Shown here piece by piece: positions 28,507 through 63,800 of a stretch of DNA of 64,000 bases. The position numbers were made by a program, and so were the translations under genes. Numbering within the stretch: the stretch's first letter is position 1; the number at the start of each line of letters is the position of its first letter. The DNA comes from Candidatus Omnitrophota bacterium (GTDB lineage: Bacteria > Omnitrophota > Omnitrophia > Omnitrophales > JACROU01), in contig JAJDCD010000025.1 of NCBI GenBank assembly GCA_029261035.1, forward strand, positions 66,926 to 130,925, in the 5' to 3' direction. Under the pieces are notes generated by a model. The model ran no database searches, was not told the DNA's origin, and worked only from the letters and a program-made list of their open reading frames with translations.

Positions 28507-28567
28507 AAGAAATTATTGAATTTACCTTTTGTCAGAGATCTTGCAACAGACTGCTTCACTTCAACCT

Positions 28568-31500
28568 TTATGCAGCTGTGAGAAGGGCTTGATACGCTTT
28601 AAAAGCTTGTTGGAGTTTACTGATTTTTTCTCTTAAGGAATTTTTAACAAAAGTAAAAACACCTCTCTTCTTATCTTTCCGAATATTGTCACGCACAGGT
28701 TTCATTAATGGATGAGACATATCCCCTTCGCTCATTCCCAACAAGAAAGCATGCGGCAATGCATAACGATTAAAATCTGCTAACTCAATACCTAAATCAC
28801 TTAACTCATTTGAAGAAGGGGTCTCTAACCTTTGGATCAACATAAGATCAATCGCACTTAATAATTCGGACGAACCTACAACGCTCAATCTACGATGAAC
28901 CATCGCCTGAGTTATATTTACACTCACTTCTTCAAAATACTGTTTTGCCAAATTTAAGATTTGAACAAAATCTTTTCCTGTTAAATAAGATTGAAAACTA
29001 TCGACTTCATCCCCTTTAAGTATAGGAATAACAAGAATTCGATCATTAATTAGCTCCCCATTTTTATCCTTCAAGAATTTTATTTTATTTTCAATCTGTT
29101 TGGCTTCTTTATTGGTTCCATAATAAAAAATTAAAGACACTGTTTTTGGATTATTCGTAAGTAATAGTGACTCCGACTCTACATCAAAGTAATCACTTGT
29201 TTTCATAACAACAGAAAAAGTCTCTGAATTCAAATCATAGGCATTAAACACACGACTTTGAGTTTCCGAAAGCACTCGATCAAAAGAAACAACCCTTGGA
29301 GATTCAGCATCCGCACTTTCAGCCGCAAAAGCTTTTGGATACCAAGAACTCATAACAAGTCTGTAAAGAGAGCTCTTCGCAGAAGAATAAAAGGACAAAG
29401 GTAAAATGCGTCCCGAAAATAACTGTGCCGTTTCTCTAACACGATCCACAACACCCAAACTTGCAGCAGAAACGTCTGCTAACTCAGGGTCATTGGAATA
29501 AATAAACCCTCCTCCAGAAGTACGATTTATAATATTTGCATGAAACACCGCTAAATCATGCTGATCTAACAAAGTATGAACTTGGTTAAAAAAAACAAAA
29601 TCTGATTTCCCAGACTCCAAATCACCTCTTGTTTTATACTTAAATGCCTGAACCCAAGCATTTACCTCTGGGTTATCAAGGTCCACTGTCACAAACTGCC
29701 AAGAGTCACTGACCCCTGGTAAAAAAGAAAATGCTTTTCTGATGTTGTTTCTCATGTCCTCAAAGTCTTTCTCCAAAGGAGTTACCGTTCTAAATCCTTC
29801 ATTAGGAATATATTTTTGAAACTTGTGCTTAAACCCATTCCACTGACCATAAACACCTCCATCTTTGTGTCTTAAGTCTATGAATGGGTAAATAATCTCC
29901 CCTCTTTTAAATGCTTCTAACACACGAGTGTCTCTATCTAAAATATTAAAATCTAAAGGAATCTCTTCTAAAGACACCCCCTCCTTTTGATACGCAGTCA
30001 TCATCAAAATTAAAATACTTAAAGGTTCTTCAAATACACCTGGACCTATTAAATCGATGGTTATTTTTTTATTTTGTTCATCGCTTTCCTTTTTCTTTCT
30101 AATCAACTCTCTTAACTTTAAATAAAAACTTTCATACTGTTTATGAGTCCTAAAAAACAACCCATACCGACCCGTTCCTTCATAATCCAAAGGAAGGGTA
30201 ACATCACTTTCTGGCTGAACCCAATACAAACTAAATTTTCCAAATTCTCTTTTATACTGGTCCATATCCTTAATTCCATTCAAATACATAAAGTACTCTC
30301 TAAAATCATCGTACCCACTAGCACGTGCAAAGCCTGACAAAGCCTTCAAAAAACTCTCTGAAAAGATGCGTCCCATATCTAATTGATGTATAAATGTTGC
30401 TCTAAAAGCTAAACTAGAAAGCATATCCGAAATCAAAACTCCATCCACACTCCCTATTCTTTTCACTAGACTCTTAGACACTTGTATTTCTCCTGTTTTA
30501 AAATCCGTTTGCTGCTGTCCCAGACTAGAAGCTCTCGAACGAGCAGCATCCATCACATCAACAACATCTTTAATTGTTTCTTTTGTATGATATGGAAGCA
30601 TAGACATCTTTACAGAATATGTTGGATCATCCTGAATTTTTAATAAATAATCATGCGGAGTCATTAAAATTAACTCTGAGTAACGAGCCATTGCAATTTT
30701 TCTGCTTTGCTCAGCAAATATTCGGACCATTCTGTCTTCAGTATATTCAGAGACCTGCTGTAAAAAATTAATTTGTTCTTTTAAGTAATCAACAAGCATA
30801 ATTAAATTCCACAAAAAAGAAGGTGTTGTTCCAGACTCACCCCAAAGCTCCCACAAATCACTATAGGGACTATCCAGTATTTCTATAAACTTATTTTTCT
30901 CAAGCAAGTCTCTAAAAGCACGTCTAGATTCAACAGAATTAACCGCTTTAATAATTCCCGCAGATGTAAATCCTGCTTTAAATAGCACTTCTTGTTTCCT
31001 CTCCAAAATTTCTCTTCTATCTTCTTCCAAATCATTATTCAAAATATTACTATTTCTATCGTACGCATCATGAGCTCTTTCCGACAATGTAGCAACAAAA
31101 TCTGTTGGAATATCAACATAAAGCAAACTTGTAACTCTAGGTAACCAACCCATTCTAACCTTTGCTTCAAAGTATTCCTCAGCAAAAAAACTTTTCCACA
31201 AAAATTGATACACCCCTTTTAAGTCGTTTACATTTAAAAGCTCTTGCTCCTTCTCTTTATTCCACCCACTATGATTCAATAATCCTTGAACCAAGCCTTC
31301 TACAAAGAACTCAAATCCATCATATTTCTCAAAATGATGCAAACTATCAACAGCAGAAACCGAAGATAATAAAGCGTCACTCACTTTCAGTTCTTTGCGC
31401 CTAGCACTTGTGAAAGGGTATTCATAAAGCATTCTAGAAGCAAAAAAGTCTGTCAAAACAAATCGTTGTCCTTGATTTATAGTTATTAATTTTTCTGGGT

Positions 31501-34500
31501 TTGTTAAGGGAATACGTCCTTGAACAAATTGATATGCCAATGCCTTTCCATAACCATAAGCAGCTTGTTGCACCCATGACTTCTCATCCTTTTTTTCTAT
31601 TAATTCTCCTTCATGAGTTGCTCGAATGGAACCTGGGCTCAACCTTAAAAGATACCCTTGTTTATTCGTTTTGTGTTCAAATTGAATACTAGCAATTACC
31701 CTAACAAGAGTCTCTTTTTCATACCCTTCTAAAGTAAAAGTCCCATATTGTTGCAAAGCATCAAATTCTCTTTTAGCCTCTCCAGCCGTCAGTCCTCCTC
31801 GAATACCTCTAAAGGAATCTTCGTAATCATAACCGCCTTCTGGAGTCCCAACCCCTTTTAATTCAAGAAAAAACTCTTGGCCATTCAACGAAAAAATCAA
31901 AGGCATTCCATTCTTTAAAACAATTCCTGTCCTCCCACCTGCACGCGTACCAATTTCAGGAGGAGTTACAGACATCAACACACTATAATCTTCCCCAATA
32001 TCTTCAGAGCTCGTAACAAGAACAGCCCCTGATAAAAAGTATTCTTTTAAGTCCTCCGGAACCATTTCCCAATCTACGGATGTTTCCATACTAACTTCAT
32101 CCATCAGAGTAAATGCGAGAGGTATTTCTTCCACAGATCTCAAATCTGTCCATTGAGCCTTAAAAGTCGCTGAGTCAGCATTTACAACATTTCTAAACTC
32201 TCTCCCTTTAGAATACACTGGTTGTATTTTTCCATCTCCATCTCTTGATAACCCAACAAGAAGATCGCCTTCCTGTCTAGCACTTTCAAACCTCTCTCTA
32301 ACCTCAGAATCTTCTACACTTTCAAGCTCGCTCAACTTCTCAGGCTCTGGCCAAAAATCGATTTTCTCACCACTATTTCGCTGCCAAATAACAAGCCCTT
32401 TCTGTAGAAGCTTACTTCCAAAATCAGAAAAAAACCTCAAGCCCCCCTCAAGCTTTTGGTAAGCTTTTGTAGGAGAACCATAAAGCTCTCTCAACATATC
32501 AAGCGTATGAACCCTTCCTTGGAGTTTGGATTCTTTGCTAAAATATTCCGACATAGTTTCGAAGTGAATCTTAGCAAAACTAATGTTAGGCCTATTAAAA
32601 GCTCCTATAAGATCTTCTATATGTCTATACGTATCTTTATGCCATTTCTTAATTCTTTGCTTTAACCTACTACGTAAAGACCAATAATCATTTTGAGGCT
32701 GCACTTCTGAAACAATTAAAACAGGATTATTAGACGCATCCCTCGATACCACGACATGCATCCAACCAATAAGACCTGGTCCCTCTGGAAAATTTTTCAA
32801 ATCCACCTCTCCCAAAACACCTCTAACCTCCTCTAAATCTTTTGTGTATTTAGTACCCTTTGAATCAACCAAAACATACACAACCAACGTTGGCTCATAA
32901 CTTTCATTAAAGAATGGGAGACGATCAATGCTTGCAGACAACTTGTATTTACCTAACTTTGAACTTTTATTAATACTCTCTTTAACTCTCTCTAAAAACC
33001 TCCAGTTCTCCAAGTAAATTGCTAAATTTCTACTTTGATCTGAATTCTCATTATTCAAACCAAGAGAAGATGCATCTACCTTACTCAACACTTTCTCTCG
33101 ACTTGCTACAACAGGAAGGTCGCCATCAGTTATTGAAGCCTGATAACTTTGATAAATCTCTTCAAAATAACTGCTATTAGAAAATAACTCAAAAACATCT
33201 TTCGATAATTTTGGATCAGAAAAAGAAAAATCAAAACCTAGCAAAACAACATTAATTAATTGCTGCACCCTTTCATCAGACAATCCTAAATGAGATAAAT
33301 TATTACTCATAGAGTCCCTTAAATAACCAGCAAACTGATTAGCAACATCAATATAAAATTGAACTTTTCCTTGATAATCAATTAAATAAAACTGTAATTC
33401 TCCCTTATGATCATCAACAACCACCTCCGCATTAGGCCATCCTCCCACCTTTTGATAGAAAGAACCTATAACCTTCCCAAACTGATAAAAGGCATTATCA
33501 AGAAAACCTTCATCCCCTAACCTTTCTCTGTTAACTAAAAGCCATTCATCAAAACTAATTCCAGGAGTATAGTCTTTGATATAAACTCTAATTGGATCTT
33601 CCTTATCAAATCCAATCTGAACAAATTGAAGAGGGCGAGTTAAGTAAGGCGTCTTTTCATAATCTTTCATACTTTCTTGGTATTCCATATACGTATGAGA
33701 ATCCGTAACAGCCCCATCCACACGATACATAAACTTGTCTGTAGCTGCCGTTAGATAAAAAACTTCATCTGGGCTTCTTAGCACAATAAGGTCCACCTTC
33801 TTATTGGACCCTTTAGCCTTACTTAAATCTATGAGCTCAATATCAAATTCGGAAAGTGGCTTGTCTGAACCTCTAAGTTCAAGAACATTTTCAAGTGTTC
33901 TTAATCCAGTTTTCTTATCCTTTACCAATAAAGCAGCCAAGATGCTTAAATGTGTGTCATGAATACCCTCTAACTCCTTATGAGAATCATAAACTTTAGT
34001 TTTAGCCAATATCTTTTCAACCTCTTCATCAAATTCAACCCGTTTAAAACGAAAGAATCTTCTCGTGCTCTCCTTAACTGATTCTTTAAATACAAGAGTC
34101 TCTTTTAATTGTTCAACACCCAATGATTGAGCCTCTGAAATCAAAGAGTCTTCCTGAGTAACCACACCTTCCTTTTCTTCTATAGACATAATCTGACTAA
34201 AGAAGTCTTTAACCACCCTTTCCATTTCGTTCTGTAACGCTAAATTATTTTGACTGTAGTGCTTATGCTGTGTTCCTTTCTGTAAAGTCACTACGTTTGA
34301 CCCTGAATCAGACCGCACTTCTGGATCAATGATAAAACGATGAGATACATTCTTCAAACCAGAGAAGGCCAAAACAAGATCCAGCTCTTTAGCAGAAGGA
34401 TCCACTGAAAAATAAACAGAACCCACCCCACTTGGAAGGCCCTTCACTTTTAAAGAAACATGCCAATCATAACCTCTCTCTAAATCAAAAAGCTTAGGAC

Positions 34501-37500
34501 CTTCATGTTCGATTTCTTCTGGTAGATTTTCTTTTTTGAACAGATCTTTAAACCTTTGAATTAAAGGAGTTGGATCAATAGGATAAATAGATGAGAAAAA
34601 GATAGCATCCGAAGCCTCTTCTGCTTCAGACAAATCTAACTCTAAATTAATTAAAGTAACTTCTTCATCCAAAGCAGGAAAGGAAATACGTCTGCTGTCC
34701 TTATCAAAAGATAATATGGGTTTAAAGGTCTTCAGAGAATCAAAAAGTCTCGCGCTCTGAGAAGGATAAATCGGCTCTTCTGATTCATATAAAACATAAT
34801 ACGTATCATCCACTAATACATAAGGGTCTAAATTTTCGGAGGTCCATATACGAGAAACATTCCCTACGTAGGCTTTACCATCAGACTGTTCTCTTAAAAA
34901 ACGATTTAACTCATATTCAAACAACAGTTCTTCAGTGCTAACATCGTCTCTTTTCATTAAAACATACTGCTTCCCATCAACATCCTCAAAACTCCAATAA
35001 ACATCGCTCAGTTTTTTTACCTGGACAAAACCTTCAATTCCAAATAAAGGCTCCACTCTCTGAATAAACTCCCCTTCAACACCTAAACTTCGGGCGGTGA
35101 AAAATTCTAAAACATCTCTATTGGGGTGCTTATTTTTAAATTCGTTACGACCTCTAAAGTTAACTCCTGTTCCAGTTAAATCAACCACCTCTAACTTTAC
35201 TAAGTTAAGTAAAGCTTCTAAGTTTCGATTCTTCACATCTCTTATTCTAGCCAAATACAGTTCCTTCAAATTAGTTAACTTGCTAATTATCTCTAAATCA
35301 CTTCCTTTTATTTGAGTCCTAGTTAGATTCAGCACTTCTAAATTTCTTAGAGCTTCTAACTGTTTTAACCCAGTTCCAGTTACCCTAGTTCCACTTAGAC
35401 GAAGTTCCTTCAGATTAGTTAATTGGATTATATCCTCAAGAGCACGATCTCCAACTTCAGAGCCTATCAAAGAGAGGGTTTTTAAATTTAGTAAATTCCT
35501 TAAATAGTTTAACCCTTCATCCATTACTTGGGTTCGATCCATTATAAGGCTTTCTAAATTCGTCAACTTTCTCAAATGTACTAACCCTTCACCCGTTACT
35601 TGCGTATCTTTTATATCAAGATTTTTCAAACTTATTAAACCACTCAAATGAGTCAGCTCTTCATTTCCAATGTCAAGTTCACTCAGATCAAGACTTCTCA
35701 AATTAGCATGTTCTTTTAAATGCCCAAGCTCTTCATTTCCAATGTCATAATAAATAAATAAAAGAAATCCTAAATTTTTTATCCCTCTTAATTTACTTAG
35801 TGAGACATTTTCAAATGGTAAGAAACCAAGTTTGATATTTAGCATTAAAGTATCTTCTTCAAAACCTACAGCTTCTCTAAATTCACCTTGTTCATATACA
35901 GAAGGATTATTCAAATCATCTAAACGACCTTTTATATCCTCTCTCACCCGTGCTTTATATTCTTCTATCACCTGTTGACCTTTTTTCGTTTCTCTTATTC
36001 GTCGTATAGCTTGTTTATGCTGCTCATGATAACTATCTGGAAAAAGGATACCTTGAGCCCACCCTCCTTCCAACACTCTCATCACTTCATCTTCTCTTCC
36101 AAGTCCTCCCAGCCTATGAAGAACCATCCCTCTCAACCCAAAATTTTCTGGGTATTCGTGCAACGCTCTCATCATTTCATTTAATCCCATATCAGGGCCT
36201 ATACCAAGGCTTTGCGCTTCTGTACTTTTAGGCTCATCTTCATCATCTGTTTCAACCCAAGAGATATTTCTATAATTTACCTCTACATCTCTTCTTGCAA
36301 GATAAATTCCTCCCGCTCCTGTCCCGACAGCAACAAGCAATAAGAGTGCGGGAATAGCTATAGGCATAGAGAATAAGAAAGAAAACAAACCTAAGGTAAA
36401 CATGTTGATTCCTAAAAAGACAATTCTTTCTCCTCGAGTAGAGCCTGGGGTCAAAGTGCTTTGTGGAAAATCAAAATCTTGAACATCCTCATCTCCTAAA
36501 CTAGCTCCCACAACAGCTCTTCGATCTCTTTCTCTATCATCAAGAATGCTTCTTTCTTCAAAAGACACATCTGACATTTCGCTTCTCAACAAATCCTGAT
36601 AATTACTCACCTGATCGAACAAAAACCAATTACGTTCTGTTGGCTTTAATCTTAATTGTTGTTCAGCTTGAGCAGCTCGATATTCCTCAAGCAATTCATC
36701 GTACTCCAACAACTCACTCTCATCTCCTTCGTAACGAAGTAATGCTGCTTGAAACATTTCGAGCAAAAGTCCTAATTTCAAGTCTAAATGCCTCAATTGC
36801 TCAATTTGATCAAAAACTTCTTTTCCCTTTTGCACAAAAAAGTTTTCTTCAAAAATATATCCACGAAGAACTTCATAAGTTGTTTTTTTCTTTTTTATTT
36901 GAATAGGTTGCCCATCTACATCTCGTGATGCTGTAGCCACTGGCATAAGCATTCTTCTTTCTTCAGACCAAACACCCGAATTGATTTCGCGAGACATTGC
37001 CCAAATAGCTGCAGTCCATAGAAAAGGAATCAAAGTCATCAGGATACTAAAAATAGAAAAAATAGTTGCGTTTTGAATTGCCGCATCCGGGCCAGGGCCA
37101 ACAATAAATGAATGAATACCTATAGGAAGCAAAGAAAATGGCATATATTGAAATAAAAACTTCGTGAAAAAATCTTGAAAAAGTACAATTCGGTTCGCAT
37201 GTCGTTCAGGGTTTTGAACAGCAGACACAAAAGAGTATAATTGAGAAGACATGGCACTATAAGCATCCCCTGCACTTCCTCCATAGGCTCCGTGCCAAGC
37301 AAAGATTTCATCCGCCTCTTTTCTGTAAGATTTTCCTAAAGCACGAATATCTTTTATGACTTGTTTTACAGCTTCATTCCGATCAGAAGAAAGGTTCGGA
37401 TTAGAAAAAATATTCGCCACTTCACTTACTGCCACTGAGCGTTTTTGTATCGACCTCATGGATGGAAGCAGCATAATAAGTGCTGTTGCAAATACATTCC

Positions 37501-40500
37501 TATGGGGAGGCGGAATATTCGTATTAATAGCAGCATCCCTCAGAATAAGCACCGCTTTTTTGCGGTTGCCAATGTAGCCCTCCCGTCTCATCAGTGCAAC
37601 AATAACTTCCGCAGCCTGCTGCACCTGTCCTTCTGTATATAACCGCCATGCATCATCAAATTCTAAAGCAGGTTCTTGAGATCGCAATTCTTCTTTCCCC
37701 AAACTCGCTCCTTCAATTTGACGATCATCTTTTTTCTTCTTTTTCTTAAGCTTTATACTTAGCTTTTCTGGAGTTTCTGATATGTCTGGGGTTGTTGAGA
37801 TGGAAAAACCCAAACTTGAAAATCGAATAGAAAGCTGATCTTTATAACTCTCTATTTGAGCTTGCATCCTTGGGCTCTCAGTTTGAAACTCATCTAGAAA
37901 CTCATGAAATCCCTGTACATCTTGAATAATTCGATTTTTTAAATTAAGATTATCGAAATCATCTGCATATTTAAAAATAAGGGATGCAATTTCATTTAGT
38001 AAAATTAACCTTGAGTCTAAACTGTCCAGATATTCAAATTGACTCAATAAATATTTGCGTGACTGTTTATCGTTAAATAAAGATTTTTCTGATTCCCATA
38101 TCAACCTTCTAACATGGCTTACAATGTCACGATCAGCTAATTTGTTTTGATCAAAGAGCTCCTCACGAAGCTCTCTTCTTTCTCTTATTTTATTGAATAC
38201 TTTTTTAAGAGTCCCAACAATGACAATAAGAGAAACAAAAGATATCAATACATTGATATTAAAATGAGATGTGTAAAATCGATGAGGATTAACGTCGAAA
38301 AAAGAATGGTAAATGCTAACTAAAGGAATAATAGCAATCACCCAAGCAAAACTCGCCACTAATGCAAGACCTTCTATTTCATTAAAATCCCTATTTCTAT
38401 AAACTGTCAAAGGATCTTCTATTAAATGCTCTGTCTCAAAGATGAAATCGGATGTAAGATAATACTTTTGCTTATCATCTTCTTTTCTAATTGAGTAATT
38501 AAAACGATCTGTATTCTCCTGCATCAAATAAGTCCTCAATAAACGCTTCGCATCTAACCCATATTCTGAATTTGTTAAAATTTCAGCATACTGATCAATT
38601 TCTTCTCTCGATTGAGAAATTACGCCTTTCATCCCTTCTGTTGCTAAAATAAGCTCAACATAATAACGAGCTACACTTCTTCTCTTCTTTCTGTCTTTAT
38701 AGTAATACAGATGATGACTGTGCAAATATTCAATTATTTCTCTTTGATAAATATTTTCTGCTGGCAATGGCCTATATTCCAAAAGCAAATCCAAAGCTTC
38801 TCCATGACGTTGTGCTTCTCTTAAAGACCGGTGTCTAACAGCCAATTTATTTGCTTCATCATCTGTTAAATCCACACTAACTCTTTCTTTTGGATCAGAT
38901 CTGTCTGAATAATCAAACGGAAATTCATCTTTGGAAAACTGCTTACCCAAACTCGCACCTTCTAGCTGACGGTCATCTCTTACTTTTCCAGTTTTAGAAT
39001 CTTCTGCAATTGGAGGGGCGGAAATATCTCTTTGAATATCTGGAAATGGAATATCAGGAAATTGTTGAATTAAGAATTCCCGCAGGTTTTTAGATTGGTC
39101 TTTGATGGGCTCCGACACGGAACTTATTTCTGTTAAAAATTGATAAAAGGCTACAATTTCATTATTGAGCCACTCTACCAACAATGGGTTTTCTTTTTCT
39201 TCCGAATATTTAATGACGGCTGCTGCTAATTCATTCAGCAAATAAATTTGAGCATCCGTGGTTCTCAGTTTTTCAAATTGAAGTTTAATGTATTGACGAT
39301 GTTTTTCATCATTAAAGAAATAGCTGTCTGTTGTCCATAACTTCTTATTAACTGCCTTAACAATTTCTTGATCACTCTCACCTAAAGATTCAAAAAGAAT
39401 TTGGTTCTGAAGTTCTAGATAATTAAGATCTTTTCCTCTGTTTTTATCCAACATCATTCTAAAAATAGCAATTAAAGATATGATTGGAATTAAAATGGCA
39501 ACTCCTCCAAGAACATAATCCGATATCTGAGAAGCCTCTAGCAAAACACGAGTGCCTAAGGTAATAAAAATTGCTGGCATTGGAACAAGTATCCAATTTT
39601 GTTTTCTGAAAATTACATTAAAAATTGAAGGGTTTCCAATTTCTTCCAAGTAAGCTTGAGGATCTAAAATCATTCTAGAAGCATGTTCTGCATCTCGTGC
39701 TGTTTTATAATAAGGCCCAGCAGGTCCTGAACCATATTGACCACCACCCCACTCAACATACTCCTTATACTTTTGGGCGCCTTGCTCATTTAGTTCTTTT
39801 GAAAGCTGTTTCAATAGATTTGAAGCTGTTTCCGCTGAAACAGCAGACGAGATTAGATCAACCATTTTGTCTTGAAGGTCCCAATCATCAAATTTAGATT
39901 CTACACCTGGCAACAATTGAATAAAAAACTTAGCTGCTTTTCTTCGAATTTGCACAGGTTGTGTTTGATCAAACAGCAATGGATAAACTAAATCAAAACT
40001 TTGTTTTCGATATTCATCATTATCGGGTAATATTCCTGGAGAACGCGCTAATAGAATATGAATCATCTTTTCATAAAAACCCAATTGAAATAAACCCTTA
40101 GCTTGAGTCAATCGATTTCTAGCATCTTCGATACCTGCTACGGATAACCTTTCATCAAAACCAAACTGCCTTTCAGTAAGTGGCGAGTTTCCCATAATAG
40201 AGCGTCGACGAGACACTTCCTCTCCAGCCGCACCAGGATCAAAATCACGCCATTTAAGCCACATCTGCTCTGTATCTACAACTGTCAAATCCAAAGGCTC
40301 TGGATGCTTTTCATAAATCTGTCTAATTTCTTCTCGAGATACTGGAGTCTGGTAAAAACTAACATGCAATAAATTCTCCATACCTTCAATCAAACTAATG
40401 TCTACCGACTCTAAACCATCTAGATTTAAATCAATCTCTTCTTTCCATTCATTCAGAATAACTCTCTTATCCCACTCCTCTTCTAGTCCATTGACTCTTA

Positions 40501-42574
40501 AAATTTCTCTTACCCTCTCTTTATCTTTTTCATAAGATCCTAATGATTGGGCCAAAACAGCTTCTTCGCTCAACGGTTGGGTTTGGTTTTTGTTTACAAC
40601 AAAGGTAGGGCGAATAATCACAGCTTCTTGGATAGGGATTAGAATAGACTGATTTGTCAGTCCCAAGCTTATCTCTACACCTTTTTTATCAGAAGAATCT
40701 TCCAAACCTGTTTGATAATTCACAGTCAAATCTGCTTGTTTAAAAAGAACATTGGATTCCAAATAGCGACTTATATTTTGAACTAAAACTTCTGTATTGT
40801 TTCTTAAATTTGGATTTAAAGATAATTCGCGCTCAATCAGAATATTTAAAAGATCAATCACAGCATCAACAAGCATTTCCACTTGCCTTTTTTCATCTCC
40901 TCCTAAAAGTTGAATTTGTTTCAGATCCCCTACCATCCCAAGCACTTTTTGAATTTGGGAGGTATCAAAAATAGTTTTACTCATTCCCATAACAGACTGG
41001 TGATACTTCTCGTGACCAAACTCCGTTTGGATTTGAGGCTGAACTCCAACATAAGATATGTTTTTATCCTTAATCAATTCTGCTAATCCTTCGGAATGAA
41101 AACCTCCCGTAATTAAGATGGCTTTTTCTTGTTTCATTTGTTTCATTTGTTTTTGAAGTTGCTCAAATAAAGCTTTATTACGTTCTTCGGCTAATCGGTA
41201 GAACTCGATAGCATTCTTATAGACAGGTTTAAATGTTTTTTGATTTTCTAAAAGAGTTCCCAAATCTCTTTCTTCTTGGTTTGAGAGTTGCAGAAGACGA
41301 TCCGTCAACTTACGCACATCTCCATTCAAACCTTTCCAATCAGAGTATGACAATTCAAAAGCAATCAATTTCTTAAATAAATTCAAATCCTCACTCAGCT
41401 TAATTAAAATCTGTTCATTTTCGTTCTTAGATAAAAATTCATATAAATTTCTACTTAATTGGTTCATTTCATTAAAAAACTCAGGACCTGTAATTTCGCT
41501 CTGAAGAATGAAGTGTTCTGAAAACTTTCTTAAATTTTTATACGCTGAAAGATCTATTTGAGCCTGCAAACTTGCTTCATAAATAAACTGAAAGAATTCT
41601 CGGGGAGCTTTTCCTGTCGTTTCGTAAAGTCGTGTCACCAAAGATTGGTTGATCTGATTTCGTTTTGTAATGGACGTTAGCCCTCGAATCAGATGCTGCT
41701 TATCCCGCTCATCAAAAACTCGTTCTCTCATCAGATGAATTAGTTGTGTTACTTCCTTCTGGAGACCCTCATCATCTAACTCTCGTTCTCTATCTTGAAC
41801 ACGAAGCATTCGACACAGAAAGGGATATTCTTTTTGGTTTAAGGGTGAGGTCAATTCTATATTAAGAAACTCTTCTGCTTTTTTTTCTAAATAAGAGATA
41901 AATTGAATGAGTTCGATTTGTTTATTCTGATATTGCAGAACTTTTTTATCAAATTTTAATAACTCGGGATTGTAAATACGCGATTTTAAAATATTCAGTT
42001 CTCGGTCAAAAGAATCAAAAAAGGGTTTTGCTTCTTCTTTGGTTTGAAGGCCTTTACGGAACAAAGTGTAATCCTCTCGGTAAAGGTCTGTTTTTTCAAC
42101 TCCTTCAAAAAAGATACCTTCATAATCTTTTAGCCCTTCAGATATTTCCAAAGCAAAAAGTTCTCCACCTGTAACCTCCCCCTTCTGAGCTAAGGCGTCT
42201 GCTACCTTCATATTAATATCTGCATAAGGAAAAAAGTGATAACTACGAGGATCTAACGAAGAGGACGCTCCTTCTAAACCAATTAACTGATAATCATGTT
42301 CACGGACTAAGTAATCTAAAATACTTTGGATATTTTTCTGTGCTTCATAGTTCGCATGAGCATCTTGAATATGAACAATCACTTTTTCGGAGTCTGCAGG
42401 AATAACTTCTTTGACTGTACCTAGTTGTTGAGGTAAGGAGAGTTGAAGAGCACTTTGAGACACACTTTTTACGTTTAGCGACAATAGCCCCTCTGGAACA
42501 GACCATGCCACTGTAGTTGTCGTAAAGCAAATAAGCACAAAACTAGCTATAAACCTCAAGTATTTAAAACCCAA
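28568..42574 (-). CDS. Giant secreted and membrane-associated multi-module protein of 4668 aa, function unknown. It has a signal peptide, a conserved N-terminal domain, at least 4 TM segments, an LRR block and nine A-x-S-L-G module boundaries.
   Basis: A single uninterrupted ORF. The TTG start has an AAGGGAG RBS 7 nt upstream. The signal peptide is MGFKYLRFIASFVLICFTTTTVAWS. The LRR block is at DNA ~35155-35800. Confidence 0.85.
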   Translation of the reverse strand: MGFKYLRFIASFVLICFTTTTVAWSVPEGLLSLNVKSVSQSALQLSLPQQLGTVKEVIPADSEKVIVHIQDAHANYEAQKNIQSILDYLVREHDYQLIGLEGASSSLDPRSYHFFPYADINMKVADALAQKGEVTGGELFALEISEGLKDYEGIFFEGVEKTDLYREDYTLFRKGLQTKEEAKPFFDSFDRELNILKSRIYNPELLKFDKKVLQYQNKQIELIQFISYLEKKAEEFLNIELTSPLNQKEYPFLCRMLRVQDRERELDDEGLQKEVTQLIHLMRERVFDERDKQHLIRGLTSITKRNQINQSLVTRLYETTGKAPREFFQFIYEASLQAQIDLSAYKNLRKFSEHFILQSEITGPEFFNEMNQLSRNLYEFLSKNENEQILIKLSEDLNLFKKLIAFELSYSDWKGLNGDVRKLTDRLLQLSNQEERDLGTLLENQKTFKPVYKNAIEFYRLAEERNKALFEQLQKQMKQMKQEKAILITGGFHSEGLAELIKDKNISYVGVQPQIQTEFGHEKYHQSVMGMSKTIFDTSQIQKVLGMVGDLKQIQLLGGDEKRQVEMLVDAVIDLLNILIERELSLNPNLRNNTEVLVQNISRYLESNVLFKQADLTVNYQTGLEDSSDKKGVEISLGLTNQSILIPIQEAVIIRPTFVVNKNQTQPLSEEAVLAQSLGSYEKDKERVREILRVNGLEEEWDKRVILNEWKEEIDLNLDGLESVDISLIEGMENLLHVSFYQTPVSREEIRQIYEKHPEPLDLTVVDTEQMWLKWRDFDPGAAGEEVSRRRSIMGNSPLTERQFGFDERLSVAGIEDARNRLTQAKGLFQLGFYEKMIHILLARSPGILPDNDEYRKQSFDLVYPLLFDQTQPVQIRRKAAKFFIQLLPGVESKFDDWDLQDKMVDLISSAVSAETASNLLKQLSKELNEQGAQKYKEYVEWGGGQYGSGPAGPYYKTARDAEHASRMILDPQAYLEEIGNPSIFNVIFRKQNWILVPMPAIFITLGTRVLLEASQISDYVLGGVAILIPIISLIAIFRMMLDKNRGKDLNYLELQNQILFESLGESDQEIVKAVNKKLWTTDSYFFNDEKHRQYIKLQFEKLRTTDAQIYLLNELAAAVIKYSEEKENPLLVEWLNNEIVAFYQFLTEISSVSEPIKDQSKNLREFLIQQFPDIPFPDIQRDISAPPIAEDSKTGKVRDDRQLEGASLGKQFSKDEFPFDYSDRSDPKERVSVDLTDDEANKLAVRHRSLREAQRHGEALDLLLEYRPLPAENIYQREIIEYLHSHHLYYYKDRKKRRSVARYYVELILATEGMKGVISQSREEIDQYAEILTNSEYGLDAKRLLRTYLMQENTDRFNYSIRKEDDKQKYYLTSDFIFETEHLIEDPLTVYRNRDFNEIEGLALVASFAWVIAIIPLVSIYHSFFDVNPHRFYTSHFNINVLISFVSLIVIVGTLKKVFNKIRERRELREELFDQNKLADRDIVSHVRRLIWESEKSLFNDKQSRKYLLSQFEYLDSLDSRLILLNEIASLIFKYADDFDNLNLKNRIIQDVQGFHEFLDEFQTESPRMQAQIESYKDQLSIRFSSLGFSISTTPDISETPEKLSIKLKKKKKKDDRQIEGASLGKEELRSQEPALEFDDAWRLYTEGQVQQAAEVIVALMRREGYIGNRKKAVLILRDAAINTNIPPPHRNVFATALIMLLPSMRSIQKRSVAVSEVANIFSNPNLSSDRNEAVKQVIKDIRALGKSYRKEADEIFAWHGAYGGSAGDAYSAMSSQLYSFVSAVQNPERHANRIVLFQDFFTKFLFQYMPFSLLPIGIHSFIVGPGPDAAIQNATIFSIFSILMTLIPFLWTAAIWAMSREINSGVWSEERRMLMPVATASRDVDGQPIQIKKKKTTYEVLRGYIFEENFFVQKGKEVFDQIEQLRHLDLKLGLLLEMFQAALLRYEGDESELLEYDELLEEYRAAQAEQQLRLKPTERNWFLFDQVSNYQDLLRSEMSDVSFEERSILDDRERDRRAVVGASLGDEDVQDFDFPQSTLTPGSTRGERIVFLGINMFTLGLFSFLFSMPIAIPALLLLVAVGTGAGGIYLARRDVEVNYRNISWVETDDEDEPKSTEAQSLGIGPDMGLNEMMRALHEYPENFGLRGMVLHRLGGLGREDEVMRVLEGGWAQGILFPDSYHEQHKQAIRRIRETKKGQQVIEEYKARVREDIKGRLDDLNNPSVYEQGEFREAVGFEEDTLMLNIKLGFLPFENVSLSKLRGIKNLGFLLFIYYDIGNEELGHLKEHANLRSLDLSELDIGNEELTHLSGLISLKNLDIKDTQVTGEGLVHLRKLTNLESLIMDRTQVMDEGLNYLRNLLNLKTLSLIGSEVGDRALEDIIQLTNLKELRLSGTRVTGTGLKQLEALRNLEVLNLTRTQIKGSDLEIISKLTNLKELYLARIRDVKNRNLEALLNLVKLEVVDLTGTGVNFRGRNEFKNKHPNRDVLEFFTARSLGVEGEFIQRVEPLFGIEGFVQVKKLSDVYWSFEDVDGKQYVLMKRDDVSTEELLFEYELNRFLREQSDGKAYVGNVSRIWTSENLDPYVLVDDTYYVLYESEEPIYPSQSARLFDSLKTFKPILSFDKDSRRISFPALDEEVTLINLELDLSEAEEASDAIFFSSIYPIDPTPLIQRFKDLFKKENLPEEIEHEGPKLFDLERGYDWHVSLKVKGLPSGVGSVYFSVDPSAKELDLVLAFSGLKNVSHRFIIDPEVRSDSGSNVVTLQKGTQHKHYSQNNLALQNEMERVVKDFFSQIMSIEEKEGVVTQEDSLISEAQSLGVEQLKETLVFKESVKESTRRFFRFKRVEFDEEVEKILAKTKVYDSHKELEGIHDTHLSILAALLVKDKKTGLRTLENVLELRGSDKPLSEFDIELIDLSKAKGSNKKVDLIVLRSPDEVFYLTAATDKFMYRVDGAVTDSHTYMEYQESMKDYEKTPYLTRPLQFVQIGFDKEDPIRVYIKDYTPGISFDEWLLVNRERLGDEGFLDNAFYQFGKVIGSFYQKVGGWPNAEVVVDDHKGELQFYLIDYQGKVQFYIDVANQFAGYLRDSMSNNLSHLGLSDERVQQLINVVLLGFDFSFSDPKLSKDVFELFSNSSYFEEIYQSYQASITDGDLPVVASREKVLSKVDASSLGLNNENSDQSRNLAIYLENWRFLERVKESINKSSKLGKYKLSASIDRLPFFNESYEPTLVVYVLVDSKGTKYTKDLEEVRGVLGEVDLKNFPEGPGLIGWMHVVVSRDASNNPVLIVSEVQPQNDYWSLRSRLKQRIKKWHKDTYRHIEDLIGAFNRPNISFAKIHFETMSEYFSKESKLQGRVHTLDMLRELYGSPTKAYQKLEGGLRFFSDFGSKLLQKGLVIWQRNSGEKIDFWPEPEKLSELESVEDSEVRERFESARQEGDLLVGLSRDGDGKIQPVYSKGREFRNVVNADSATFKAQWTDLRSVEEIPLAFTLMDEVSMETSVDWEMVPEDLKEYFLSGAVLVTSSEDIGEDYSVLMSVTPPEIGTRAGGRTGIVLKNGMPLIFSLNGQEFFLELKGVGTPEGGYDYEDSFRGIRGGLTAGEAKREFDALQQYGTFTLEGYEKETLVRVIASIQFEHKTNKQGYLLRLSPGSIRATHEGELIEKKDEKSWVQQAAYGYGKALAYQFVQGRIPLTNPEKLITINQGQRFVLTDFFASRMLYEYPFTSARRKELKVSDALLSSVSAVDSLHHFEKYDGFEFFVEGLVQGLLNHSGWNKEKEQELLNVNDLKGVYQFLWKSFFAEEYFEAKVRMGWLPRVTSLLYVDIPTDFVATLSERAHDAYDRNSNILNNDLEEDRREILERKQEVLFKAGFTSAGIIKAVNSVESRRAFRDLLEKNKFIEILDSPYSDLWELWGESGTTPSFLWNLIMLVDYLKEQINFLQQVSEYTEDRMVRIFAEQSRKIAMARYSELILMTPHDYLLKIQDDPTYSVKMSMLPYHTKETIKDVVDVMDAARSRASSLGQQQTDFKTGEIQVSKSLVKRIGSVDGVLISDMLSSLAFRATFIHQLDMGRIFSESFLKALSGFARASGYDDFREYFMYLNGIKDMDQYKREFGKFSLYWVQPESDVTLPLDYEGTGRYGLFFRTHKQYESFYLKLRELIRKKKESDEQNKKITIDLIGPGVFEEPLSILILMMTAYQKEGVSLEEIPLDFNILDRDTRVLEAFKRGEIIYPFIDLRHKDGGVYGQWNGFKHKFQKYIPNEGFRTVTPLEKDFEDMRNNIRKAFSFLPGVSDSWQFVTVDLDNPEVNAWVQAFKYKTRGDLESGKSDFVFFNQVHTLLDQHDLAVFHANIINRTSGGGFIYSNDPELADVSAASLGVVDRVRETAQLFSGRILPLSFYSSAKSSLYRLVMSSWYPKAFAAESADAESPRVVSFDRVLSETQSRVFNAYDLNSETFSVVMKTSDYFDVESESLLLTNNPKTVSLIFYYGTNKEAKQIENKIKFLKDKNGELINDRILVIPILKGDEVDSFQSYLTGKDFVQILNLAKQYFEEVSVNITQAMVHRRLSVVGSSELLSAIDLMLIQRLETPSSNELSDLGIELADFNRYALPHAFLLGMSEGDMSHPLMKPVRDNIRKDKKRGVFTFVKNSLREKISKLQQAFKAYQALLTAA

Positions 42575-42664
42575 TAGGACACTCCCTTTTTTAATAAGTT
42601 TAATATGTATTTAGCTTCTTTACAAGATTTATACTGCTATATATAGGGATACAACCCTATCCAT

Positions 42665-57894: not shown

Positions 57895-60800
57895 ACGCTG
57901 CCGCCGCTACAAGCTCTTCAGCTTGGAACTGGGCATACACCTTATTTAATAGGGTTGTAATGAAACTGGCCCCAATAACCCATTCTTGACCATCAGGCTT
58001 GAAGCCGGCTTTGAGAAAAAGCTCCTCTCGAAGATCAGGGTAATTGGCTAATTGACGTAAGAGGGCTACGACCTGGACAGGATCTACTCCATTACCTGAC
58101 AACACTTCTAAGTCAAGACGTACTCGATCTCCGTTACTGAAAATCATCTGGAATACATTTTCGTTTGGACTCACCCAAATACCTGGCACCTCATATTTTC
58201 TTAATGAAGCTCTAAAAATTTCTGGATTCAAAAGCTCTCGACGCACATCTTTAAGTTTAAATTGTTTTCCAGGTAACTTATATAGAGCTTGAAGAAACTC
58301 CGGCTTACCTCTCCCCTCCCACGTTACCATCAACAAATCTTTTTTCTGCATCATGCTATTAAACTGAGATGCACTTCTTTCAGGGTCGTCCACATGACTT
58401 AAAATGATGTCATCCACGATCAGTGGAATGGGTTTATTGACTTCAGCTTCTAGCAACCCCGAAACTTCCAAAGATAAATATTGAGTCATCACCTCTAAGG
58501 ATTGATTAAAATCTATAATACGAGGATCTATGATTCGATCTACTGTATCTTCCAAAACTCCCATACGAATAAGTAAACTTTTAATAACCTCTAATGGAGA
58601 ATTTGGCATAAATAAGATTTGCCCTGCAAAGGCTTGAGCAACTTGAATCATTCCTTCAACCGAAACATCTCGCGCTTTAATTTGAGTTAAAGCAGGTTCT
58701 GCTCCCAAACTCTGCGCTTCAGCTCTGAGCCATTCTTCTTCCGGACCACTCAGTTCGTTCGCCTCATCTCCAGACTCTCGTTTCCATAATTCTGATAAAG
58801 TTTTTAACTGGTTTATAACTAAATCAAATCCTATACCTTCCTCTTTTTCTAGAATCATCAAAACCTCTTCCCCTCTTTTTGCTTTGATTAAATTTGCTCC
58901 ATATTTACCCTCAATAAACCATCTTAAAAAATTATTTTGAAAATCAACTTTTTTACTAATATCCTTCTCAGCTAACAACGTATCAAAAATAACAGAAAAA
59001 GCTTTTTCAATTCTTTCCAACTGTTTTAGTTTTTTATTTTCATCTAATACTGAAGGCATAGCTAAGAAAAGAAAAACCACTAAGGGTAAATAGCGCTTTT
59101 CTTCTTTGGCCAACCTTATAATTTGATCTCTCAAAAATGAGTCTGTTGCATATCCAAATTGAACCATCTCAGATAGATGGGAAAACACCTTAGGCAAAGG
59201 ATCATCCACATAAGGAACATAAAAACGATATATCAGAATTATAAACTCAATATTAAATATAGGGTGACGAACACCCATTTGTTCTTCTAATAAGATTTGA
59301 TTCCATATATGAATAGCTCCGGATAAACGTCTAGCTCTAACATTGGTCAACAACTCCTTTAAACCATCAAGTAATTCGTCCAAAGAAATGGTCACACGTC
59401 GTTTTGAAATGCTTGTAACCATTTCTTGTATTGCTTTGATAGAGTTTCTTGACAAATCTTTATCATGTTCAGCTATAAACTTCTGCCAAATTCTAAAAGT
59501 GTTAATATCATGAATGAATTTATACTCAAATAATACTTCTAAAAGCCTTAGTATTTCTTCCCCTCTAAAAAAGGTCTCAAATCCAAAAATTTTGGACTCA
59601 GCATCTGGTTTAAAAAATGCTCGTTGAAATTTTTCATCCAGTTTTGTTGACGGGCCTATTATCTGAGTCAAAGAAGAATTATCATACTTTTGTCTTATAT
59701 TCGAGTACGCCCCTAAACTCTGCGCATCCACTCTTAACCACTCAGGTTCCTCTCCTTCTGACTCAATACTTTCGAACGGCCCTTCTTTTCCCCAAACATC
59801 TGCTATTTGCCTTAGCTGTTCTAAAACTTTTTCCTCTCCAACAGCATCTTTTCTTCTTATAATCTCTAAAACCTCCTCCGTTCTAAACATTCCGTTAGAA
59901 CTTACTGTTAATCGTTCCCATACATCTAATCCTAATCTAGGCTCCTCCATACTCTCCATAAAAATCAAATATTCCATTAGAAAATTCGGATCTAATACTC
60001 GGCCACTCCTTTCCACCTGTTCAAGAAAACTACCAACAACTTCAAAAGAAGAAGAAATTGTAAAAATGTCATTCATTTCTACCACCTTACTGAGCCTTTC
60101 CCAGAGATCAGAATGGAGAACATCCTTATCTATCAATTCTTTTTTTATCAAAAAACCTAGGGTTCTTAACAGAGTAAAAGTACTTGTAAAAGAATCCTTG
60201 TTCAAATGAGCAAACCTAAATAATAAATTAATATCCAAAACTTGTTCATCAGCTCTCCCTGACTTCACAGCCACCCCCAACTCTACAAGCTGCTCAAAAC
60301 TGCCCATCTCCCGCAAATCATAATATTGAGCCATTATAATGAACAGTTCCTCATTCCATAATTTTTCTGGAATCCTCTCCTCTGCTATGCCGGTTTCCAT
60401 CCGTAACAAATCCTCTATAAGAGGTTGTATTTCCTTTGAATTCACCTGAACAAGCGCTTCCAAAAAATCTAAATTAAATCTTTCTATCCTTCGTCTTTTC
60501 TCTAGCAGGGAGTCTCCTAACTGTTCGATAGCTTGAAAAGACGTGATTCTATTATCCCTACTCCCTTTACTAACTATTTCAAAAATTCTTTCTATTTTTT
60601 CTAATTCACTTACATCTTTAAAAATTTCTGTTAAAACGATAAATGCCTCCATAGCCGCTTCTTCATCTTCAAGCACTTCAACTAACCCAGAAAAGTCCTG
60701 CTCAAACGCTTCCCACTCCATGTCCAGCCCCTCTAAAAGACCAGCCTCTTCATATCTATCACGAGCTCCTAAACTTTTTGCAGAAATGATGACGGGTGCC

Positions 60801-63800
60801 ACATCAATCAATCTCTCAACTATCCCATCTACTTCTTCCTGAGGGGCTGTAATCATTCTTAACGCTTCAACGGCTCTCGTCTTTAGGTCTGAGCGTATTT
60901 CATTTAAATTTCCGGTTTGACGATTTCTTTGGGTCCATCCAACAACATCGTTTAAGTTGGCTTCTAGATCTTTTTTTGTTTCATCACTCATTTCGTAGAA
61001 TACGTCTGGTGCATCAATCACAAAGCTGCGTCCAAACTCAGCGAAGGCGGATGTGTTTGTGAAGTGAGGAAAAGGAGTTCCTTGCACACGATCTGCAATG
61101 AACACCGTCATTTTAGAGGATTCAATGACAATTCCCGTCCCTACACCATCATCAATCGTAGAAATTTTAAAAGGTCCAACCTTTTTCCACTCTTTTCGCT
61201 TAGCTCTTTCGATTGGAAAATCGGTGCGCACCACATGGGAATGAATTTGGGCTTGGCTCGCTCCTCCCCGTGGAGGGTCTGCAATGTCTTGGTAGTGCCA
61301 GCCATTCATTGCCATTTTAAAACCATTTTGACCAAACTCTTCTTTGGGAATCATCAAGACATTAAAAGAATTTCCTTTTTCTGAAATCAGCTGTGTCGTC
61401 TTCGCAATAAGTGCGGCTAACTGCTGGTCTTCAACAGAGTCAGTTTGTATGACATTACTATTGGTATTCAATTCGTTTACGGCTGTAATAGCGTCCCGTA
61501 TATGTGTTTGTTGATTCCACTCTTTTTGATGAACAACATCGTCTGCTCTAGAAAAAGTCATATGGTACGGTTGGTCTTCGTCATACAAACCTTCTCTTAG
61601 TGGCCAAATGGCATAAGGATTAAACGCAAACCACCATCGATTCCCACTAGGACCCTCCCATCGAAGTCTAAATTGTTTTTCATTTGCTTTCATTCGTTCG
61701 GGGTAAAGCACTTTCATGACAGGTGTGTCTTCGTTGATTTTTTCTTTTTTAACTCCGGTTCGATTGGGTCTTTTTGCTCGTGCCACATTCTGCACAAAAA
61801 TAAACTCTGGATCCTCCTCTAACCCTACAGGCAATCCCCCTAGATAGGTTTTAGGAGATTCTTCTTCTGGAAAATAAAGTGCGTATTCCACTGTGTTTCC
61901 ATCTTCCATAATTTTTAAAAAATCTCTTCTTGATTTATCCATTTGTAAATTTAAAAAAGCTCTAACAGCATCCGACAAATACTGGAAATAATTTGCCCTT
62001 AATTCCGGCTCTCCTGGAACAAAAGGACTAACCGACTGCACTCTTAATGAAGCGTTCTGTCTAAGCGCTTCAAACGCTAGTACAATGTTTTTAATAATAA
62101 AATTGCTATTACTAACAGGAGCTCCCAGCGAAGCCGCTGAACTCAAATAATCATTACTAAAATCAATAGGAGCTGGTGTTGCAAGCGTTAACGCCACAAC
62201 AGCTTCTAACACTCTTTGTTTTCTATCTTTAGAATACCTCGAATGCATCCCACTTAAATCCAAAGATAAAGGCGCTCCTATGTTCGATTCGGAGATTTTA
62301 TTTAAAGTAGGAATAATTGATTTCAAATAAAGGTTACGACTATAATCAAAAGCTTCTATTTGTGGAGAGAGCGAGACAACGGAATACCCTTTCTTGCCAA
62401 GCAAGTCTTGAACCCCTTCACTATGAAAACCTCCTGTTATCAAAATTCCCCTATCCTCTTTTCTTGTTTTCATATGTTTAAGCATTCGTTGAACAAACTC
62501 ATTCTCTCTTTTCTCTGCCAAAACATAGAACTGGTGTGCTTTTTTGAAGAGAAGCATCATGGATTCCGTAGATTTAAAAAACGTCTTTTCTTGCAATAAT
62601 TTTTGAACATCTAATTGTAGCTGGAGTGGTACAGGACGAAGGCTTTCTTTGAAGAGCGTCGTATATTCTTCTCTATTTAATTCCAAAATCAAAAATCGTT
62701 TTAGAGAAAGGTAGAGTTGGTTCAGTTGCATGATATTCTTTTCTTCTGCTGTGCTGGTCAATTGAGCCGCTAGCATGTTTTCTAATAACCTAAGCTCTTC
62801 AAACAAACCTTGTGAATTAATTTCGGATTCGAGAATCTGATACTGAACCCATCGTGAAAAAGCCTCTAATTTAGGTGTTTCAACCCCTTTTTCCATAAGC
62901 TGCTCTACAACTTCTTCAAATAAAAACCGTGGGAACTTGATCTCACTCTCTACCCCTTCTCTCATACGATTAAGCCAAGTCTCAAATTGGGAATACAGTG
63001 ACGCACTTAAGTGAGGTTGAATACTTTCTAAAAACTGATTTGATTCTTTAAATGCTAAACTGAAATTAACTTTAGATTCGATAGACTTCATCGAAAACAA
63101 TCGAACAAGGTTAGGGTAATCTAATTGGTGGACGGGATCATCAAAGTTAATTTGAAGTGCTTTTTGACTGTACTTCTTTAAAGTTTCCAAATAAGAATAA
63201 AGGTAATCTGAATCTTTATGATACTTACGCCATTCCTTTACATAAAGTTTAAGTTCATTAGAAAAATAACGATTTTCTAATTGCATTAGTTTTATTTCCA
63301 CATCCTTCATCCATTCGGATGACATGGATTGGTTTTCTATCACATATTGAAACAACTGAAGGTCCTCATTGTAAATTTGAGAATCTTCAACTCCAAAAGC
63401 TTCAATGGGCTGAGCATTTTCTTGAGAAAGCAAAAACATCTCTGCGCCTGTAACAACTCCTTCCTGCATGAGTTGATCCGCCACTTCTAAATTAAATTTT
63501 TTATTCGGAGAAAAATGAAACAAGGAGGGATCTAACTTCTCTGTCCCTGCCTCTAAATACAACGTGGAGACTTCTTGAGACTCCGTAAGGACTTGCACCA
63601 TTTTTTCTATTTGTTTTTGCGCTTGATAATTACTGTGGACATCTTGGATATGAAAAACAATACCTTTGGGTTTGTCTGGCACATTAGAATAAGTCACCCT
63701 TCCTAACTCGGGTGGCATCACATCAGAAAAAAGAGAGGTTGTGGAAGAAGTTTGACGTAGAACTTCTCTAGGTTGCGGTGCTTGCGCCCACAAACAGCTG

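Follow-up and report, generated by a model that had tools for sequence, protein, structure and literature searches.

Two genes on the minus strand of a 64,000-nucleotide stretch of Candidatus Omnitrophota DNA (assembly GCA_029261035.1, contig JAJDCD010000025.1, positions 66,926 to 130,925; hereafter the window) encode giant proteins, g1 (4668 amino acids, aa) and g2 (1986 aa), in which a common N-terminal leader domain is followed by a string of cassettes separated by a short recurrent motif, [A/G]xSLG. These motifs may mark the points where the giant proteins are cut into pieces. The best-supported reading, to which we give even odds, is that g1 and g2 are exported modular polyproteins processed at these junctions, with the leader as the most economical candidate for the cutting enzyme. 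The main interest is the junction-delimited cassette architecture and its testable tie to giant-protein processing in the Omnitrophota, a phylum of uncultured ultra-small bacteria that are suspected predators or parasites and that encode, to our knowledge, the longest proteins known. An earlier note on this DNA had described the two open reading frames (ORFs), which do lie where it placed them; what goes beyond it is the recurrent motif, the division into cassettes and the assignment to a phylum known for giant genes.

A short motif recurs between the segments of both giants

We counted as a junction each S-L-G with Ala at -1 or -2 ([A/G]-x-S-L-G). By this rule g1 has 10 sites, against 0.23 expected from its composition and a maximum of 3 in 2000 shuffles, and g2 has 4, against 0.08 expected and a maximum of 2 in as many shuffles (Table 1). 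Examples of junction-spanning peptides are SLISEAQSLGVEQLK and DRQLEGASLGKQFSK. Splitting the two proteins at the junctions gives segments of ~100–850 aa. Codon usage varies from one junction to the next, with TCN and AGY for Ser, TTA, TTG, CTT and CTG for Leu, and GGA, GGT and GGG for Gly. This variation points to selection on the peptide, not the DNA, and rules out the junction as a DNA repeat or recombination site.

Wherever g1 shares cargo with its relatives, homology begins or ends at a junction in both partners. Residues 4032–4245 of g1 match residues 2915–3131 of L081b (L-numbers denote loci of the family survey described below), which follow an AKSLG at 2911. The g1 segment 4382–4668 matches the last module of L081a (38% identity), behind a GSSLG at 2385, and g1 4368–4668 matches L083 1852–2102 in an alignment that spans the motif itself. 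An unrelated protein of 1412 aa, P0070, aligns with g1 2666–2831 across AEARSLG/SEAQSLG, with its modules in a different order.

The natural C-termini found in the g1/g2 lineage (..LLTAA, ..VAAAA, ..ILAAA, ..TLASA and ..IQKAA) look like the pair of residues in front of the junction Ser, which suggests that modules may end right before it. Across the leader family, 83% of complete long members end in [A/S][A/V/L]; among other ORFs of 300 aa or more, the share is 15%. In a second AlphaFold model, the 17 residues before S4017 have a predicted local distance difference test score (pLDDT) <50 and form the only low-confidence stretch at its C-terminal end.

The leader domain is predicted to have a known hydrolase fold

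The paralogy of g1 and g2 is limited to an N-terminal region of ~520 aa. BLASTP aligns g1 13–529 with g2 11–514 (28% identity, E 1e-53) and no other part of the two proteins, in line with the shared collinear domain and downstream divergence described in the earlier note. The peptides quoted there are present, with ITGGFHSEG at 488–496 of g1 and ~472–480 of g2. Signal peptides had also been proposed, and both N-termini are indeed Sec-like as judged from sequence and hydropathy, with a basic n-region, a hydrophobic core and a cleavage-type site (putatively between AQA and P in g2).

The domain had been held to be novel and unassignable. As far as sequence matches go, this stands. Searches of Pfam, NCBIfam and the PDB sequences, with the single sequence or a profile, gave zero matches to the leader domain, and hence no confident profile match to a well-characterised family. 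Pfam at E ≤ 0.1 showed no leader-family match in g1 or g2, and Pfam and PDB profile searches showed no significant match of the leader to TraB_PrgY_gumN, Erythro_esteras or Cofac_haem_bdg; a weak Cofac_haem_bdg match (E 0.006) appeared in one of 37 leader homologues. PDB sequence searches with the full leader profile, and with a core-only profile from which the helical insert had been removed, found nothing, and Foldseek returned no significant match of the leader model to the PDB.

The predicted fold, by contrast, probably belongs to a known superfamily. The AlphaFold2 model, built from the alignment of leader homologues (pLDDT 89.5, predicted TM-score 0.81), shows a small α/β core to which the N-terminal ~117 and the C-terminal ~55 residues contribute, with an all-helical insert of ~320 residues between them. 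This core has a central parallel β-sheet with flanking helices, as in the TIKI/Ere/TraB/ChaN superfamily. Since the superfamily includes esterases (Ere) and a haem binder (ChaN) besides proteases, the fold does not imply protease activity. Its common features are a parallel-sheet core and a 2His/2Glu catalytic set, the catalytic residues being E3900, H3902, E3930 and H4030 in RRSP and H85/E113 in Bcr135 (PMC6254334).

In an alignment of 37 leader sequences, H73, Q79, E101, G158 and E160 (g1 numbering) are invariant, and D71, N75, Y76, E77, R465, G490, G491, F492 and H493 are conserved in at least 90%. D71-x-H73 stands behind a strand, E101, 28 residues further on, closes the next strand, and a G-G-F-H after a late strand contains H493. 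Compared by sequence order, this linear pattern resembles that of the TIKI catalytic set, and the candidate catalytic residues are placed at strand ends as they are in the superfamily; the first acid is Asp rather than Glu. From this one method, it is probable that the leader has a fold of the TIKI/TraB/erythromycin-esterase/RRSP hydrolase type, and the model would make it a new family within a known hydrolase superfamily.

Leaders head long ORFs or, as stand-alone genes, mostly precede a partner ORF

A collection of 5.8 billion proteins contained 35 leader homologues, of which all named ones are from Omnitrophota, and the GTDB species genomes yielded 393 stretches with leader homology, essentially all from Omnitrophota metagenome-assembled genomes. 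We fetched 80 loci from these 393 stretches and surveyed them together with the window; many of their ORFs run off contigs. In the 80 loci, the domain is always N-terminal, behind a hydrophobic leader sequence, and heads ORFs of ~1000 to >3800 aa. The proposal of a family of giant exported modular proteins with a shared leader is borne out, the leader family being large and confined to one phylum, and the suggested co-occurrence of the N-domain with giant ORFs is seen as direct fusion.

Stand-alone leader genes occur in 14 loci. For 12 of the 14, the next same-strand ORF either overlaps the leader gene or lies no more than 258 nt behind it. Nine of these partner ORFs encode 590–655 aa, one encodes 1002 aa and two are giant (3040 and 2406 aa); the giant partners overlap the stop-to-stop frame of the leader, although in L009 the start is called 5 nt behind the leader stop. 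The two leaders without such a partner are that of L030 and the minus-strand gene of L051. We take this arrangement, with the leader either fused to the next ORF or adjoining it, as a sign that the leader acts together with the downstream cargo.

Among complete ORFs of L002–L079 and the window, C-terminal tails differ by sub-clade (..RRKVMWSV, ..AVLKSL and ..AIRA), and partners of stand-alone leaders end in ..LIQA. These conserved tails could be a sorting or recognition signal. When used as jackhmmer queries, the C-terminal modules of the two giants matched no other complete family member, so the conserved tail is just a short signature.

Junction motifs track one clade of leaders

The closest leader relatives of the giants also carry [A/G]xSLG, with 8 sites in L001 and 8 plus 2 in L002. 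A sister lineage has a different motif, R-S-E-[VMAIL]-R (RSExR), found 10 times in L051, 6 times in L015, 5 times in L010, 4 times in L018 and three times each in L016, L011 and L003. Over the 80 loci and the window, leader ORFs (154,057 aa) contain 42 RSExR and 39 SLG-type sites, compared to 4 and 21 in the other ORF stretches (324,649 aa).

We placed 85 leader domains in a neighbour-joining tree, leaving out L002_9848 (8 SLG-type sites). All members of the tree with at least three sites fall in one upper clade, together with g1 and g2. Outside it, only isolated sites occur, two of SLG type each in L002_4324 and L061 and one RSExR each in L055 and L067. In nearly every member of the upper clade, the first junction comes 74–222 residues after GGFH, whichever the motif type; the exceptions are L005 and the truncated L008. 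When the motif-less clade was searched de novo for motifs, no recurrent junction emerged. Because most leader-bearing giants are motif-less, the function of the leader cannot depend on these junctions alone.

Cargo cassettes vary between close relatives

The TM (transmembrane) helices and LRR (leucine-rich repeat) block that the earlier note saw in g1 are both present. Hydropathy gives four TM hairpins in g1 and none in g2. Two TM-hairpin modules of g1, m1 and m2, are paralogues (29% identity, E 2e-17), and all that m3 has in common with them is the TM-hairpin architecture; in g2, m2 and m3 are paralogous to each other. The LRR block, with tandem LxxLxLxxN/T repeats, matches Pfam LRR_4 (29.1 bits; cut-off 27), LRR_14 and LRR_8 and, in the PDB, internalin A (E 4e-8); it is also found by NCBIfam. 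The LRR was the only domain found by Pfam and NCBIfam scans of g1 and g2 and by PDB sequence searches with single cargo segments.

A word-indexed homologue search with g1 2496–4668 gave nothing, and exhaustive HMMER found relatives for parts of this region only. With g1 2817–4016 as query, it returned 104 relatives, mostly over g1 ~3416–4000. In the model, this cassette has a SelO-like kinase fold, bilobal, with a conserved Lys, an HxxN-type catalytic loop and a metal-binding Asp. Its relatives are stand-alone proteins of ~650–700 aa with a hydrophobic leader sequence of their own, and it occurs inside other giants as well; a Pfam scan of these relatives found no domain in any. When the g1 and g2 cargo was compared by BLASTP with every ORF of the 80 GTDB loci, nothing outside the leader matched.

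The three nearest genomes (UvrB 78–80% identical) keep the gene order hom...uvrB-giant...GDE. In each, the post-uvrB gene carries a leader 39–40% identical to that of g1 (hidden Markov model E 1e-96 to 1e-125) and [A/G]xSLG sites. The cargo of these positional orthologues differs: L081b is an ORF of >3183 aa, L083 has 2102 aa with WD40 propellers, and L085 combines SpoIIE with WD40. WD40, SpoIIE and NUDIX are the cargo matches seen in relatives; the remaining cargo has no assignment. The slot between uvrB and the glycogen-debranching enzyme gene (window 28384–42718) is a variation hot spot, holding a different leader-bearing giant in each close relative between syntenic flanks. Positions 1–8052 of L081 are the tail of another giant, L081a (7340 aa), with LRR and NUDIX matches and six [A/G]xSLG sites.

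Table 1. Features of the two giant genes, by position in the 64,000-nucleotide window
Feature	Position	Strand	Description
Giant 1 (g1)	28568-42574	minus	4668 aa; TTG start; signal peptide, predicted TIKI-like leader domain and 11 segments with 10 [A/G]xSLG junctions between
g1 putative Sec signal peptide	42500..42574	minus	aa 1-25, cleavage between ..TVAWS and VP; from sequence and hydropathy
g1 leader domain	40985..42442	minus	aa ~45-530; predicted α/β TIKI/Ere-like core, ~320-aa all-helical insert; conserved D71, H73, Q79, E101, E160, R465, H493
g1 junction 1	40538..40552	minus	LAQSLG, S677; 185 aa behind GGFH
g1 membrane-anchored part	36296..39595	minus	aa ~994-2093; TM hairpins 994-1044, 1399-1461, ~1800-1860 and 2050-2093 in m1-m4 (hydropathy)
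g1 junction 2	38945..38959	minus	EGASLG, S1208
g1 junction 3	37697..37711	minus	EGASLG, S1624
g1 junction 4	36494..36508	minus	VGASLG, S2025
g1 junction 5	36203..36217	minus	EAQSLG, S2122
g1 leucine-rich repeat block	35126..35821	minus	aa ~2252-2483; internalin-like
g1 junction 6	35081..35095	minus	TARSLG, S2496
g1 junction 7	34118..34132	minus	EAQSLG, S2817; aligns with AEARSLG of P0070, module order unrelated
g1 cassette m7	33068..34126	minus	aa 2817-3169; two homologous copies in P0070, 23-25% identity
g1 junction 8	33059..33073	minus	DASSLG, S3170
g1 protein-kinase-like (SelO-like) domain, predicted	30575..32329	minus	aa ~3416-4000
g1 junction 9	30518..30532	minus	RASSLG, S4017; next cassette homologous to L081b 2915-3131, behind AKSLG
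g1 cassette m9	29462..30526	minus	aa 4017-4371; 37% identity to L081b cassette
g1 junction 10	29453..29467	minus	SAASLG, S4372; aligns with GSSLG of L083 and L081a
g1 terminal cassette m10	28571..29461	minus	aa 4372-4668; last module also of L083 (32%) and L081a (38%); ends ..LLTAA
Giant 2 (g2)	57893-63853	minus	1986 aa; TTG start; signal peptide, predicted TIKI-like leader domain and 4 cargo segments, 4 AxSLG junctions; no TM helices
g2 leader domain	62294..63736	minus	aa ~40-520; paralogue of g1 leader (28% identity), conserved residues identical
g2 junction 1	62123..62137	minus	SAASLG, S575; 99 aa behind GGFH
g2 junction 2	60767..60781	minus	SAKSLG, S1027
g2 junction 3	59711..59725	minus	DAQSLG, S1379
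g2 junction 4	58703..58717	minus	EAQSLG, S1715

Are the junctions processing sites?

If the junctions are processing sites, a single Sec-type signal peptide would export the whole chain, that is, the leader hydrolase and a lineage-variable string of cassettes. After export, the chain would be cut at the junctions, most likely by the leader hydrolase acting in cis or in trans, with the bond perhaps lying just before the junction Ser. Cutting would free the leader and the soluble cargo proteins, while TM-hairpin segments would stay in the membrane. The outcome would be a secreted bacterial polyprotein whose way of working recalls the autoprocessing MARTX toxins or viral polyproteins. We advance more tentatively the fuller version, in which the TIKI-fold leader is a protease that cuts [A/G]xSLG or RSExR in these Sec-exported, self-processing chains and so releases effectors (kinase/AMPylase-like, LRR, WD40 and phosphatase) that would be used on host or prey. 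Kinase-like cargo needs ATP, so delivery into another cell is implied.

Several points weigh against processing by the leader. We infer cleavage at the junctions from sequence and predicted structure. Junction flanks are just mildly less hydrophobic than average (0.30 versus 0.35), and members of the TIKI superfamily also serve as non-proteases, as the Ere esterases and ChaN do. There is a larger clade of leader-bearing giants with neither motif, and a short-pattern scan of P0070, which does carry the motif, showed no leader signature (the leader profile was not applied). Finally, kinase-like cargo that stays extracellular and does not enter another cell would lack ATP.

The motifs could instead be uncleaved linkers or seams, with g1 and g2 as single giant, adhesin-like scaffolds anchored at the surface or in the membrane and the motif as a hinge, a site of Ser modification or a docking element. 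Giant uncleaved surface proteins are common, and the TM hairpins and LRRs of g1 would suit such a role, as would junction flanks that are not strongly disordered by composition. However, five strictly conserved residues at the borders of unrelated cassettes would rarely be expected of a passive linker, the more so as equivalent positions are occupied by either of two motif types. Natural C-termini that mimic the pre-junction residues and cassettes that also exist as stand-alone exported proteins argue in the same direction, and we consider the linker explanation fairly unlikely.

Another protease might cut the junctions, leaving the leader to, for example, hydrolyse an ester or peptide of the prey envelope or bind a cofactor as ChaN does. 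Candidates would be an enzyme like type I signal peptidase or an S41 tail-specific protease, cutting after the Ser of [AG]-x-S with small residues at -3 and -1, or a C39 double-glycine peptidase, cutting between G-A and S. If the cut falls after Ser, both motif types would mostly have a small residue at -3 and Ser at -1, and the motif-less giants and P0070 would also fit an enzyme other than the leader. West-Roberts et al. (2023, bioRxiv 10.1101/2023.11.21.568195) propose that C39/S8 peptidases cleave Omnitrophota giants. However, g1, g2 and those neighbouring genes that were scanned showed no C39, S8, S26 or S41 domain; motif presence tracks one leader-domain clade; and the close spacing of leader and first junction holds in nearly every member of that clade. 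Overall, a separate protease seems improbable, and the C39 double-glycine peptidase has been set aside as the processing enzyme for want of such a domain in g1, g2 or the scanned neighbours.

That the giant ORFs are assembly chimeras, a concern raised in the earlier note, or fused pseudogenes is effectively refuted: each exact giant protein is recorded from one contig only, but the frames span 14 kb and 6 kb without interruption, there is no shift in composition, both leader domains are conserved and retain their catalytic-type residues, the three closest relatives have syntenic leader-bearing giants at the same post-uvrB position, and cassettes are common to other genomes.

Comparison with known giant proteins and polyproteins

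The leader differs from the member families of the TIKI/TraB-PrgY-GumN/Ere/ChaN/RRSP-HopBA1 superfamily in several respects. It has no significant sequence-profile match to any of them, has Asp rather than Glu as first acid, and has a core split by the ~320-aa helical insert. It always stands behind a signal peptide, heading or directly upstream of a larger exported protein, and is restricted to the Omnitrophota.

MARTX toxins resemble the giants in being exported proteins of several thousand residues with interchangeable effector cassettes and short linker sites. Their cassettes differ between strains and are released by a protease domain in the same polypeptide, and one MARTX cassette, RRSP, is structurally related to the leader. 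The differences are equally clear. Pfam and NCBIfam scans of g1 and g2 show neither RTX/glycine-rich repeats nor the C80 cysteine protease domain, which in MARTX toxins is activated by inositol hexakisphosphate. The giants have an N-terminal Sec-type signal, whereas MARTX toxins have a C-terminal type I secretion signal; the candidate protease of the giants is N-terminal and of another fold; and their junction is a five-residue motif, compared to Leu-X in MARTX.

Closer in phylogeny are the Archaeovorins and dockerin-type giants of the Omnitrophota, which are likewise modular and for which cleavage into several products and action on prey have been proposed. Like the giants described here, they are rich in TM segments and cytoplasmic-type enzymes. 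However, they exceed 30,000 aa and have C39/S8 peptidase, dockerin/TSP3 and SecA-like domains, none of which Pfam finds in g1 or g2 (4668 and 1986 aa). The TIKI-like leader and explicit candidate junction motifs are on the g1/g2 side. The two preprints on Omnitrophota giant genes favour C39/S8 peptidases as the cleaving enzymes and report that cleavage points are not known; they make no mention of a TIKI/TraB-like leader or of junction motifs, and a wider full-text literature search found nothing specific. Viral polyproteins (birnavirus VP4, potyvirus NIa-Pro) are similar in that one translation product has short Ala/Ser-rich junction motifs between functionally unrelated modules; unlike these, the giants are encoded by cellular chromosomal genes for exported proteins, the protease fold is another one, and processing is our inference.

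For the Omnitrophota giants studied previously, no cleavage points were known, and their lack blocked that analysis (bioRxiv 10.1101/2023.11.21.568195). The family described here supplies a candidate leader enzyme of a fold that includes site-specific proteases, two explicit and statistically strong junction motifs that delimit shuffled cassettes, and naturally split versions, with the leader encoded by a gene of its own immediately ahead of the partner ORF. The leader, the junctions and the split-gene variants jointly make giant-protein processing directly testable, and the junctions offer rational split points of giant ORFs for structure prediction and annotation. If they are cut, the motifs would be the first defined processing sites of Omnitrophota giant proteins; an exported polyprotein strategy of cells would be added to bacterial cell biology, and the TIKI superfamily would gain a new class of substrate.

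Genomic neighbourhood

In the window, g1 is preceded by a Shine-Dalgarno-like AAGGGAG. Upstream of it lie housekeeping genes, all on the minus strand (hom, thrC, apgM, aspartate kinase, leuA-like, valS, pseudouridine synthase, nadC and uvrB), and downstream, also on the minus strand, the gene for a glycogen-debranching enzyme. The UvrB of the window is 71–80% identical to its nearest relatives in the protein collection, and the closest of those with a named source (78% and 71%) are labelled Omnitrophica/Omnitrophota.

Dispersed hairpin repeats had been reported before the giants. Instead, there are two hairpins of unrelated sequence, each directly behind a stop codon, and we reject a dispersed repeat family. 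One (42664–42709, 22-nt arms, 95% complementary) is immediately 3' of the uvrB stop and the other (57842–57895, 21-nt arms, 95% complementary) immediately 3' of the g2 stop; both look like terminators. The helix-turn-helix (HTH) and Fic pair noted downstream of g2 is present on the minus strand, between hom and g2 (57199–57690 and 56609–57214, respectively). It had been taken as a pointer to the role of the giants, a functional tie that we discard: adjacency alone supports it, and the terminator-like hairpin separates g2 from the HTH gene.

Small gene pairs resembling toxin-antitoxin systems adjoin giants in two places, namely HTH and Fic (56609–57690, minus strand) behind g2 and PhdYeFM and PIN in L083 (12081–12793). 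The latter pair lies between uvrB and the giant, and nothing beyond position ties either pair to the giants functionally. L083 also has, at 2361–2720, a bAvd / 23S-rRNA-IVP-like gene between apgM and the aspartate kinase gene, absent from the window; bAvd is a type of accessory protein of diversity-generating retroelements. The window holds two genes for LeuA/HMGL-type synthases (20604–22151 and 49678–51243), presumably isopropylmalate synthase and citramalate synthase. Within g1, residues 1611–1616 (window ~37727–37744) read KKKKKK just upstream of junction S1624, and KKKK occurs at about residue 1893; the A-rich runs that code for these lysine stretches are potential slippage sites.

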